Positions 52,269-55,200 of a stretch of DNA of 64,000 nucleotides are shown here, piece by piece. The stretch's first letter is position 1; each line of letters starts with the position of its first letter. Origin of the DNA: Escherichia coli. GTDB lineage: Bacteria > Pseudomonadota > Gammaproteobacteria > Enterobacterales > Enterobacteriaceae. Location of the stretch: the NCBI RefSeq assembly GCF_003334355.1, contig NZ_QOWP01000011.1; one strand, 5' to 3'. A program made the position numbers.

Positions 52269-55200
52269 TAATCTTTTTGTTTGAAAAATAAAGTCTTAGC
52301 GTTGTGCGTTAAGACTTTTTTATGGGTGCCGGATACAAAAAAGGCCGCAGGCTGTTACCCCTGCGGCCGGTTTCGGGCGCATATTGCCATCACGGCAGCC
52401 TGACGCCCGTTTTCACCTTACTTCCGGTTACGCCACCAGCCGACAATCGCTGCGGTAATAATTCCCGCCAGGATCGGTGCTGCCAGGTCGTGCCAGAAAG
52501 TCATGGCAAACTGCGCGAGCGTCATATAGCCGCCTTGTTGTAATGACAACATTTTGCGGCTATTCTTGAAGTGTCTGGTTTCAAGATTAGCCCCCGTTCT
52601 GTTGTCAGGTTTTACCTCTCAACGTGCGGGGGTTTTCTCTTTCCAGCAACCAATGCCACCAGGGATAAAGCCCCCGCAACATTGCGCCTCACCGGATAAC
52701 GCCGGCTTGGTGTGGATACTACGACTCAATTCATCTTCACTTCATCCCTGAAATGTTTGCAATGAAGAGTGCATTCCGGTTTTTCAACAGCTGTTACAGT
52801 CATTTCATGAGTGCTCTGGATGAGGCTTCCAGCTCGGGTTGCCAATATTTACTTGTGGAAGTGATAAAGACAAAAATGGCCGCAGGCTGTTACCCCTGCG
52901 GCCGGTTTCGGGCGCATATTGCCATCACGGCAGCCTGACGCCCGTTTTCACCTTACTTCCGGTTACGCCACCAGCCGACAATCGCTGCGGTAATAATTCC
53001 CGCCAGGATCGGTGCTGCCAGGTCGTGCCAGAAAGTCATGGCAAACTGCGCGAGCGTCATATAGCCGCCTTGTTGTAATGACAACATTTTGCGGCTATTC
53101 TTGAAGTGTCTGGTTTCAAGATTAGCCCCCGTTCTGTTGTCAGGTTTTACCTCTCAACGTGCGGGGGTTTTCTCTTTCCAGCAACCAATGCCACCAGGGA
53201 TAAAGCCCCCGCAACATTGCGCCTCACCGGATAATTCCGGCTTGGTGTGGATACTACTTCTCAATTCATCTTCACTTCATCCCTGAAATGTTTGCAATAA
53301 AGAGTACATTCCGGCTTTTCAACAGCTGTTGCAGTCGTTTCATGAGTGCTCTGGATGATGCTTCCAGCTCGGGTTGCCAATATTTACTTGTGGAAGAGAT
53401 AAAGACAAAAATGGCCGCAGGCTGTTACCCCTGCGGCCGGTTTCGGGCGCATATTGCCATCACGGCAGCCTGACGCCCGTTTTCACCTTACTTCCGGTTA
53501 CGCCACCAGCCGACAATCGCTGCGGTAATAATTCCCGCCAGGATCGGTGCTGCCAGGTCGTGCCAGAAAGTCATGGCAAACTGCGCGAGCGTCATATAGC
53601 CGCCTTGTTGTAATGACAACATTTTGCGGCTATTCTTGAAGTGTCTGGTTTCAAGATTAGCCCCCGTTCTGTTGTCAGGTTTTACCTCTCAACGTGCGGG
53701 GGTTTTCTCTTTCCAGCAACCAATGCCACCAGGGATAAAGCCCCCGCAACATTGCGCCTCACCGGATAATTCCGGCTTGGTGTGGATACTACTTCTCAAT
53801 TCATCTTCACTTCATCCCTGAAATGTTTGCAATAAAGAGTACATTCCGGCTTTTCAACAGCTGTTGCAGTGGTTTCGTGCAGGTTGTGGTACAGGCTCGC
53901 AATTCTGATTAACGAGCTGTCCAGGTAGTATGAAGAAATACAATAAGCAGGAATTTATCTTATCTCCCCCGATTTCCGTCATCGGAGGAGATATAACTGT
54001 CAGGCAAATATCGTCATCAAATAGGCGGCAAACAGTGCCAGATGCGCTGCGCCATTGAGCACGTTAGTACGTCCGGTGGAGAAGGAGATATGGCACAGCA
54101 CTAAAGAGGCCACCATCACCACCATTTCTGGCGCACCAAGTGCAAACTGTAATTCGTTACCCGTCATAAAGGCAATTAGCGTGACGACAGGTACGGTGAG
54201 CGAAATGGTTGCTAACACTGAACCAAAGAACAGATTCATCGCGCGCTGGACCTGGTTGTTCAACACTGCTTTTAACGCACCTAAACCTTCCGGCGACAGA
54301 ATCAACAGAGCCACCAGGAAGCCAGTAAAGGCGACAGGGGCATTCATGCTGTCGAGCAATGTCTCCAGCGGGCTGGCATTCATTTTGGTGACTGCAATAA
54401 CGGCAATCAGATGGATAATCAACCAGATAGCATGCCACACGCTGCTATGGGCAGACGGTTTACCGTGATGCGGGTCGTCGTCATCACTGTCATCTTCGTG
54501 CTCGTAGACAAACAAACTTTGATGCGTTTTGGTCTGGATCAGCAAAAATACGCCATACATTGCCGCAGAAATTAATGCTACCAGTAACGCCTGACCGGTT
54601 GAAAAATTCGCCGCAGGCAGAGCCATTGGAAATACCAGTACGATTATCGCCAGGGGGAACAGCGCAATTAAATACTGCTTGATACCAAACAGATTCATAT
54701 ATTGGGTGGCAAACTTACGACCGCCCAACAATAATGAAAAGCCAACCAGCCCACCGGTAACAATCATAATGATTGAATAGAGCGTATCACGCATTAGCGT
54801 TGGCGCGGCGTCGCCGGTTGCCATTAAAGCTGAAATCAAACTGACTTCAAGAATAACCACTGAAAGGCTAAGAATAAGCGAACCGTAAGGTTCTCCCAGG
54901 CGATGGGCTAATACGTCCGCATGACGGACAACACTAAAGGCGCTACTTAAAATACCAATAAGCGCAAGAAGATTGATGGCAATGACCACTGGTAGTGTCT
55001 GGCTGCTTCCCCACAGGAACAGCACTACCAGCGCCAGAACCGGGAAAATAAGCGAAGTCTCCTTGTGGCGGGTTTTTACCGCCTCTTGAGCATTTGACAT
55101 TATGGTTATCCCTTTGCAGATGAATTTATCGAAAATGTAAAAAATAGGTAGGAAAAATAACAGAAAGTGTCTGGATATCGGTAACATTTTACGAATTTTT

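Follow-up and report, generated by a model that had tools for sequence, protein, structure and literature searches.

The DNA analyzed here is a 64,000-nt stretch (hereafter the window) of Escherichia coli contig NZ_QOWP01000011.1 (RefSeq assembly GCF_003334355.1), and between its kdsA and chaA genes lies what is virtually certain to be the chromosomal LDR-A/B/C (ldrABC/rdlABC) type I toxin-antitoxin array of the species. When the sequence was compared with itself at fixed offsets and the copies were aligned three ways in register, the region resolved into three LDR units arranged head to tail and repeating every 535 bp exactly, together covering 1536 nt (52335-53870). Self-identity was 97.8% over 500 nt at an offset of 535 and 94.8% at 1070, as against 23-30% at neighbouring offsets. 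The original prediction, made from the sequence alone, had placed three tandem 535-bp units at 52340-53871; copy number and period were borne out, and the bounds were right overall, except that the array begins 5 nt further to the left and ends 1 nt earlier. A repeat search of the window also returned three copies, spaced 535 and 535 apart, and reported no other repeat family in the 64 kb. Tandem Repeats Finder left the array unreported because its longest period, 500, falls short of 535. No 69-nt inter-unit spacer follows the third and last unit, which has 466 of the 535 nt for that reason, and the array amounts to 2.87 copies. Coordinates are collected in Table 1, and positions within a unit are given below as offsets counted within the 535-bp unit.

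Each unit carries a minus-strand ldr open reading frame (ORF) and, on the plus strand, an rdl antisense RNA. The encoded 35-residue hydrophobic peptide, identical to LdrB of K-12, matched Pfam PF13940 (Ldr_toxin) over residues 1-35 of 35 (E 3.3e-26) and the nuclear magnetic resonance structure of LdrD (PDB 5LBJ; E 1.5e-10); NCBIfam gave no family for it at E values up to 0.01. The Fst/Ldr superfamily signature has been described as a transmembrane helix that contains a PXXXG motif and is followed by a conserved tryptophan, together with a charged C-terminus (PMC7472228, PMC2887945), and on reading the sequence we found these features at P17-I-L-A-G21, W30-W31 and R32-N-R-K35, respectively. Rfam RF01813, a model built on rdlD, gave one full-length match per unit at 91.4 bits each (gathering score 50). 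The Rdl RNA is predicted to fold at -26.7 kcal/mol (z -4.5), and lies opposite the ldr 5′ untranslated region (UTR), 48-113 nt upstream of the ldr ATG, with perfect complementarity. The identification as LDR, ldr and Rdl made in the original prediction is upheld by the RF01813 and Ldr_toxin matches and by the K-12 layout with its 535-bp spacing. The array is thus an already known one, at the same locus as in K-12 and with the same layout and spacing (LDR-A/B/C; Kawano et al., 2002, as cited in PMC4147584). All 5426 of 5426 complete E. coli genomes had a match to the array query, and the RefSeq annotation names Ldr family toxins.

The signals around the two genes recur in every unit. In all three, the ldr terminator is a stem of 9 pairs, 8 of them G-C, with a T run after it; terminator-like hairpins were predicted on both strands, for ldr and for rdl, and the stem-loop of Rdl followed by its U run constitutes the predicted rdl terminator. 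An AAGG Shine-Dalgarno-like sequence precedes the ldr ATG (at 52525 in unit 1, with the stop at 52418). Further upstream in the ldr 5′ UTR, a 25-codon leader ORF begins with an ATG preceded by a Shine-Dalgarno-like GGTGAGG and stops 80 nt upstream of the ldr ATG. Its 3′ end is inside the Rdl-complementary stretch, so that Rdl covers only the 3′ 34 nt of the leader ORF and not its start. This ORF is a candidate for 'ldrX', the leader ORF proposed by Gerdes and Wagner according to the description in PMC4147584. A 20-codon ORF with a TTG start, its stop overlapping the ldr ATG as ATGA, was also considered as a coupling leader and rejected, as a 1-nt indel in LDR-D shifts its frame and it is not conserved. 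The putative rdl promoter ends 7 nt before the Rdl 5′ end and has 8/12 consensus matches; the counterpart of the putative ldr -10 hexamer in LDR-D is TAGAAT.

Table 1. Features of the LDR array and its flanks (window coordinates).
Feature	Position	Strand	Description	Basis
kdsA	51417-52271	+	left flank of array	ORF and annotation of homologous loci
LDR unit 1 (U1, LDR-A position)	52335-52869		535 bp	period-535 self-identity
LDR unit 2 (U2, LDR-B position)	52870-53404		535 bp	period-535 self-identity
LDR unit 3 (U3, LDR-C position)	53405-53870		466 bp	homology stops at chaA-side flank
ldr intrinsic terminator, unit 1	52335-52368	-	stem 52368-52343, then T run	terminator scan
ldr terminator stems, units 2 and 3	52878-52903; 53413-53438	-		terminator scan
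ldr toxin ORF, unit 1	52418-52525	-	35 codons + stop; LdrB-type peptide MTLAQFAMTFWHDLAAPILAGIITAAIVGWWRNRK	translation; PF13940; PDB 5LBJ
ldr toxin ORF, unit 2	52953-53060	-		nucleotide-identical to unit 1 ORF
ldr toxin ORF, unit 3	53488-53595	-		nucleotide-identical to unit 1 ORF
Putative rdl promoter	52538-52566; repeats at +535, +1070	+	TTGTAA-17 nt-TATTCT	read from sequence
rdl antisense antitoxin RNA, unit 1	52573-52638	+	66 nt	Rfam RF01813
rdl antisense RNA, unit 2	53108-53173	+		Rfam RF01813
rdl antisense RNA, unit 3	53643-53708	+		Rfam RF01813
Leader ORF in ldr 5′ UTR	52605-52682; 53140-53217; 53675-53752	-	25 codons, MLRGLYPWWHWLLERENPRTLRGKT	ATG after GGTGAGG; LDR-D conservation
Putative ldr -10 hexamer	52716-52721; 53251-53256; 53786-53791	-	TAGTAT	read from sequence
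chaA	54000-55100	-	right flank of array	PSS-12 annotation mapped onto window; translation check

The three units are far more alike in some parts than in others. Offsets 9-365 (357 nt, almost the whole ldr transcription unit) are identical across U1, U2 and U3, including the ldr ORFs (108/108 nt in the register alignment) and the rdl RNAs. U2 equals U3 at all 466 shared nt, and U1 differs from U2 at 12 positions, one of them at offset 8 and the other 11 at offsets 366-528, in a stretch that follows rdl and is upstream of ldr. Both the identity of the three ORFs and the placing of the divergence in the flanking and rdl-downstream parts had been noted from the sequence beforehand and were confirmed, and the plus-strand ORF translations quoted at that time as differing (PDNAGLVWILRL versus PDNSGLVWILLL) were found in the window. 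These plus-strand ORFs, 61-79 codons long and lying inside the units, are uncalled in the genome annotations examined. Two dinucleotide differences separate U1 from U2 and U3 near the putative ldr -10 hexamer, one immediately upstream of it (52723-52724 versus 53258-53259) and one ~15-20 nt downstream of it (52700-52701 versus 53235-53236). Unit 1 may be expressed differently from units 2 and 3 despite the identical transcripts.

Comparison with relatives showed that this uniformity sets the array of this strain apart from the others sampled. The nearest complete genome, that of strain PSS-12, is 99.9% identical over 24.5 kb, and 16 of the 22 differences in that interval fall inside the 1536-nt array. 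Over the whole 64 kb the array holds 16 of 33 substitutions, a 38-fold excess (Fisher p 9e-18), the remaining 62.5 kb having 17 substitutions and 2 indels. Offsets 9-365 include 13 sites that differ from PSS-12, and at every one of them (13/13) the window base in all three units is that of the sister units; the changes from PSS-12 in units 1 and 3 replace a unit-specific base with the sister-unit base in contiguous tracts. The unit-1 states missing from the window lie at offsets 158, 166, 237-245 and 278-279; since most of them are common to K-12, E8, F637, AR202, DAX4 and others, the heterogeneous array is ancestral and the state of the window is derived. Among 20 informative sites in unit 1, the nine replaced ones are contiguous (p 7e-5) and are followed on the promoter side by ten retained unit-1 states, and this replaced block with its retained flank appears to be the signature of a conversion tract. 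In agreement with this pattern, offsets 366-535 of U1 (the promoter side and spacer) match unit 1 of K-12, PSS-12 and E8, and the core at 9-365 equals that of U2. In unit 3, the states proper to that unit are gone at offsets 107, 129 and 265, and the G specific to it at offset 467 is retained. Position-specific bases also persist in the spacers that follow units 1 and 2, which indicates that the three-unit frame is old and makes re-duplication from two copies unlikely. A 117-nt stretch of unit 1 (offsets 276-392) was tried as a marker of a rare chimera and abandoned, being exact in many genomes including O157, O26 and O111; because of this, a simple split into A-type and B-type units fails species-wide, and it was replaced by the site-by-site comparison with nearest relatives given above.

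Intermediate stages of the same change occur elsewhere. Unit-1 mosaics are graded, with conversion rising from PSS-12 through PCP07083 and TOE3, in which only offsets 237-279 of unit 1 are converted, to BL21, whose unit 1 differs from that of the window at offset 147 only. Thirteen other records have an exact match to the LdrB-type core with T at offset 147, and unit 2 of E8 differs from U2 at offset 389 only. Taken as a whole, these observations are best explained by homogenisation of the LDR-A/B/C array through intra-array gene conversion (probability roughly 0.7), and that real conversion is what made the copies identical we hold to be very nearly as probable. Gene conversion was one of two explanations that the original prediction had offered for the identical ORFs, and it gains support from the inclusion of non-coding sequence in the 357-nt identity and from the templated, contiguous changes relative to the nearest relative. 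Unit-2-type sequence would have overwritten the core of unit 1 in a tract of at least offsets 158-279 and the core of unit 3 in a tract of at least offsets 107-265, leaving the unit-specific promoter sides and spacers in place. It would suffice for an E8-like unit 2 to have been copied into unit 1 and into unit 3 by one conversion each, with a small change at offset 389 in addition. We consider it rather likely, with less assurance than for conversion itself, that the LDR array is in concerted evolution, changing ~40x faster than its flanks, and that in this strain it has turned three toxin-antitoxin pairs, which are distinguishable in K-12, into one pooled module of triple dose. Our literature search found no paper on conversion or concerted evolution among LDR copies or type I toxin-antitoxin loci.

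Several points weigh against this interpretation. The sequence at offsets 9-365 is the majority-rule consensus of a PSS-12-like array, as polishing with multi-mapped short reads would yield; the exact array occurs in 0 of 5426 complete genomes, the best match being 99.5%; and an already homogenised array may have been imported from an unsampled strain by homologous recombination. As to the module itself, a sigma-70 consensus scan of 52250-54000 listed no promoter, and the promoters in Table 1 were for this reason identified by eye only, the one proposed for rdl going unlisted because 8/12 matches fall below the threshold; the weak hexamers picked out in this way are suitably spaced from the RNAs that they would serve. 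A further point concerns ycgV, an autotransporter gene on the minus strand. At window position 37847 the sequence reads TTT, compared with TT in all 3848 matching records, and this private 1-nt insertion causes a frameshift that leaves two ORFs (36336-37835 and 37792-39204). The insertion reflects a new pseudogene or else a sequencing error, and it bears on how far the assembly can be trusted.

The foremost alternative is that the array is real and its homogeneity an artefact, reads shorter than the 535-bp unit having been misplaced and a consensus base written into all copies. The original prediction had taken the sequence as true; homogenisation by assembly or polishing was left unconsidered. 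An artefact would account for the majority base of the three PSS-12 units standing at all 13 differing sites, for the absence of the exact array from complete genomes and, as a homopolymer-type error, for the insertion that splits ycgV. It would also fit the presence of unit 3's base at offset 389 of U2, as reads could be ambiguous between U2 and U3, unit 1 being too different. Against it, each unit is within 1 nt of the same-position unit in another genome (unit 1 of BL21, unit 2 of E8 and the last unit of AR0369), partly converted unit-1 alleles are present in other assemblies, and an LdrB-type core bearing T at offset 147 recurs exactly in the 13 records mentioned above. The flanks are also clean. 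Of the two indels that separate them from PSS-12, both 1-nt insertions in the window, one is that in ycgV and the other is a common natural allele. This second indel lies at window position 13157 in hlyE (minus strand), where a T8 run in place of the T7 of PSS-12 splits the gene into two ORFs (12745-13176 and 13130-13789); since exactly this T8 allele is carried by 359 complete E. coli records, ATCC 8739 and strain C among them, it is a natural pseudogene allele rather than an error. On balance, we regard an artefactual origin of the homogeneity as unlikely, if worth keeping in mind.

Recent events at the level of whole units or of the whole array are a much weaker alternative. The identity of U2 and U3 could stem from a very recent duplication by which a two-copy array regained a third unit, or the entire array could have been imported by homologous recombination; two- and one-copy arrays are indeed common, also among close relatives, and unequal recombination is demonstrated at the locus. 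Regeneration from a two-copy array would leave the new unit with the unit-1 spacer, whereas the spacer after U2 differs from that after U1 at offsets 468, 490 and 528 and matches the unit-2 spacer of K-12, E8 and MB50. Import, for its part, is opposed by the absence of flanking substitutions relative to PSS-12 within 1 kb on the chaA side and 2 kb on the kdsA side (0 in both). Both routes are therefore improbable.

The second explanation in the original prediction, that purifying selection on the Ldr peptide keeps the three ORFs identical, fits the three identical peptides and the position of the visible differences outside the ORF, and is nevertheless the least credible of all, because the 357-nt identity also spans the 3′ UTR, the ORF-rdl spacer, rdl, the leader region and synonymous sites, because 12 of 12 other sampled three-copy genomes encode two or three Ldr peptides per array, and because the 12 nonsynonymous and 3 synonymous ORF variants counted in 52 units (21 genomes) are close to the neutral expectation. 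In the same 52 units, each of the four possible pairings of I/T at residue 9 with G/S at residue 29 was seen. The rdl region was the most variable segment of the sample (pi 0.053), and the three identical Rdl RNAs of the window are for that reason unusual.

The number of units also varies among strains. In a sample of 60 evenly spaced records drawn from the ranked list of 5441 matching records, ~28 had three Ldr genes between kdsA and chaA, 16 had two (e.g., O157:H7 and O55:H7), 15 had one (e.g., ST131) and 1 had its best match only at ldrD; a four-copy array was not seen in these 60. Strain KMi029, with flanks 99.8% identical to those of the window, has two units, the first being a fusion of unit 1 and unit 2. 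The expectation that the array would be a hotspot of copy-number change was thus met by units numbering 1, 2 or 3 across the sample and by this two-copy close relative. The homology between repeats that would permit gene conversion would also drive unequal recombination, giving rise to arrays of 1, 2 or 3 units among strains. Another kind of rearrangement was observed in BL21(DE3) (NZ_CP081489.1, 3139-3195), where the LDR array breaks off 48 nt into unit 2 and is joined to a 55-nt element end, which we take to be that of IS1, with a partial ROK-family gene and lolE beyond it. A rearrangement breakpoint thus lies inside the array. Additionally, ~30 LDR-like matches were located on plasmids and some genomes had up to 15 matching places, so LDR units also occur outside the kdsA-chaA and bcsG loci.

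Elsewhere the window consists of ordinary core chromosome. This sequence is collinear with strain PSS-12 and runs from ymgC/pdeG through minCDE, hlyE, umuDC, dadAX, dhaKLM, prs and hemA to narG. The C0299 small RNA (Rfam RF00119) was found full-length at 13880-13958 on the plus strand (109 bits), in the hlyE-umuD intergenic region as in K-12.

How the module works can be proposed by analogy with its characterised relatives. LdrD and LdrA are α-helical peptides of the inner membrane, overexpression of Ldr leads to a drop in ATP, nucleoid condensation and growth arrest, and RdlD blocks translation of ldrD by a mechanism described as unknown or as hok/sok-like (PMC4147584, PMC8309996, PMC7472228). 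Toxicity and control by Rdl in the strain studied here would carry over from this literature on LdrD/RdlD and LdrA of K-12. Transcribed leftward, each unit would yield an ldr mRNA of ~370 nt comprising a long 5′ UTR with the leader ORF, the 35-codon ldr ORF and the intrinsic terminator; transcribed rightward, it would yield the 66-nt Rdl, which would pair with the ldr 5′ UTR 48-113 nt upstream of the start codon. The unstable Rdl would then block ldr translation post-transcriptionally, either by way of coupling to the leader ORF or through cleavage by RNase III, both routes being proposals. Because the cores are identical, the three Rdl RNAs and the three ldr mRNAs should be fully interchangeable, and full cross-pairing among them is implied.

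The locus is textbook E. coli, and our analysis mainly confirms the annotation of three ldr genes and three rdl RNAs; the apparent homogenisation specific to this strain, seen in the assembled sequence, is a minor point. The array nonetheless provides a clear, small example of concerted evolution and of copy-number flux in a bacterial toxin-antitoxin repeat. When ldr alleles are compared between strains, the copies should be regarded as exchanging sequence with each other rather than as fixed orthologues. Tandem 535-bp units that are nearly identical are also prone to being homogenised or collapsed by assemblers and polishers, and copy number and unit-specific variants at the LDR locus can be trusted only with spanning long reads. 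If the homogenisation is true, and if the specificity of Rdl/ldr pairing matters as it does for Sib/Ibs, the strain would be a natural test of cross-regulation and dosage.

The closest known system is the array of K-12 MG1655, with the order kdsA, ldrA/rdlA, ldrB/rdlB, ldrC/rdlC, chaA and the same 535-bp spacing, strands, peptide family and 66-nt Rdl. It differs in that LdrA equals LdrC and both are unlike LdrB at residues 9 and 29, whereas all three peptides of the window are LdrB-type, and in that RdlA and RdlB differ at 5 positions, whereas the Rdl RNAs of the window are all identical. Between units, the K-12 array shows 9-17 differences in 466 nt, compared with 0 or 9 in the window. LDR-D (ldrD/rdlD), the experimentally characterised copy near bcsG, shares an architecture that can be aligned with the array from the -10 hexamer to the terminator, the homology beginning just downstream of the ldr -10 hexamer. 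An 85-nt block of the 5′ UTR is 100% identical between the two; this is the most conserved part of the repeat and holds the leader ORF, which in K-12 LDR-D has the same length of 25 codons and 21 of 25 residues in common with that of the array. Unlike the array, LDR-D is a single copy at another locus, and the Ldr peptide of the window has many substitutions relative to the LdrD structure chain; LdrA and LdrD are 57% identical (PMC8309996).

The resemblance to hok/sok consists of a long toxin 5′ UTR, an antisense RNA placed away from the toxin ribosome-binding site and a proposed coupling leader ORF (PMC4147584). In hok/sok-type systems the leader extends across the start of the toxin gene, with the antisense RNA masking the leader ribosome-binding site; in the array, by contrast, the leader ORF ends well short of the ldr ATG with no overlap, Rdl leaves the leader start uncovered, and the toxin families are unrelated. 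The Rdl mechanism may still be like that of hok/sok, and translational coupling from the leader to ldr is a proposal by analogy, never demonstrated for ldr. The ibs/sib and zor/orz loci likewise combine a small hydrophobic toxin with a cis-antisense RNA, are repeated within one intergenic region and vary in copy number by lineage (PMC2887945), and they belong to other toxin and RNA families. Cognate Sib/Ibs pairs are documented to be discriminated from one another (PMC2943612), whereas the three pairs of the window are indistinguishable. The ldr-rdl loci, too, have been described as duplicated within one intergenic region and as evolving through lineage-specific duplication (Fozo et al., PMC2887945).

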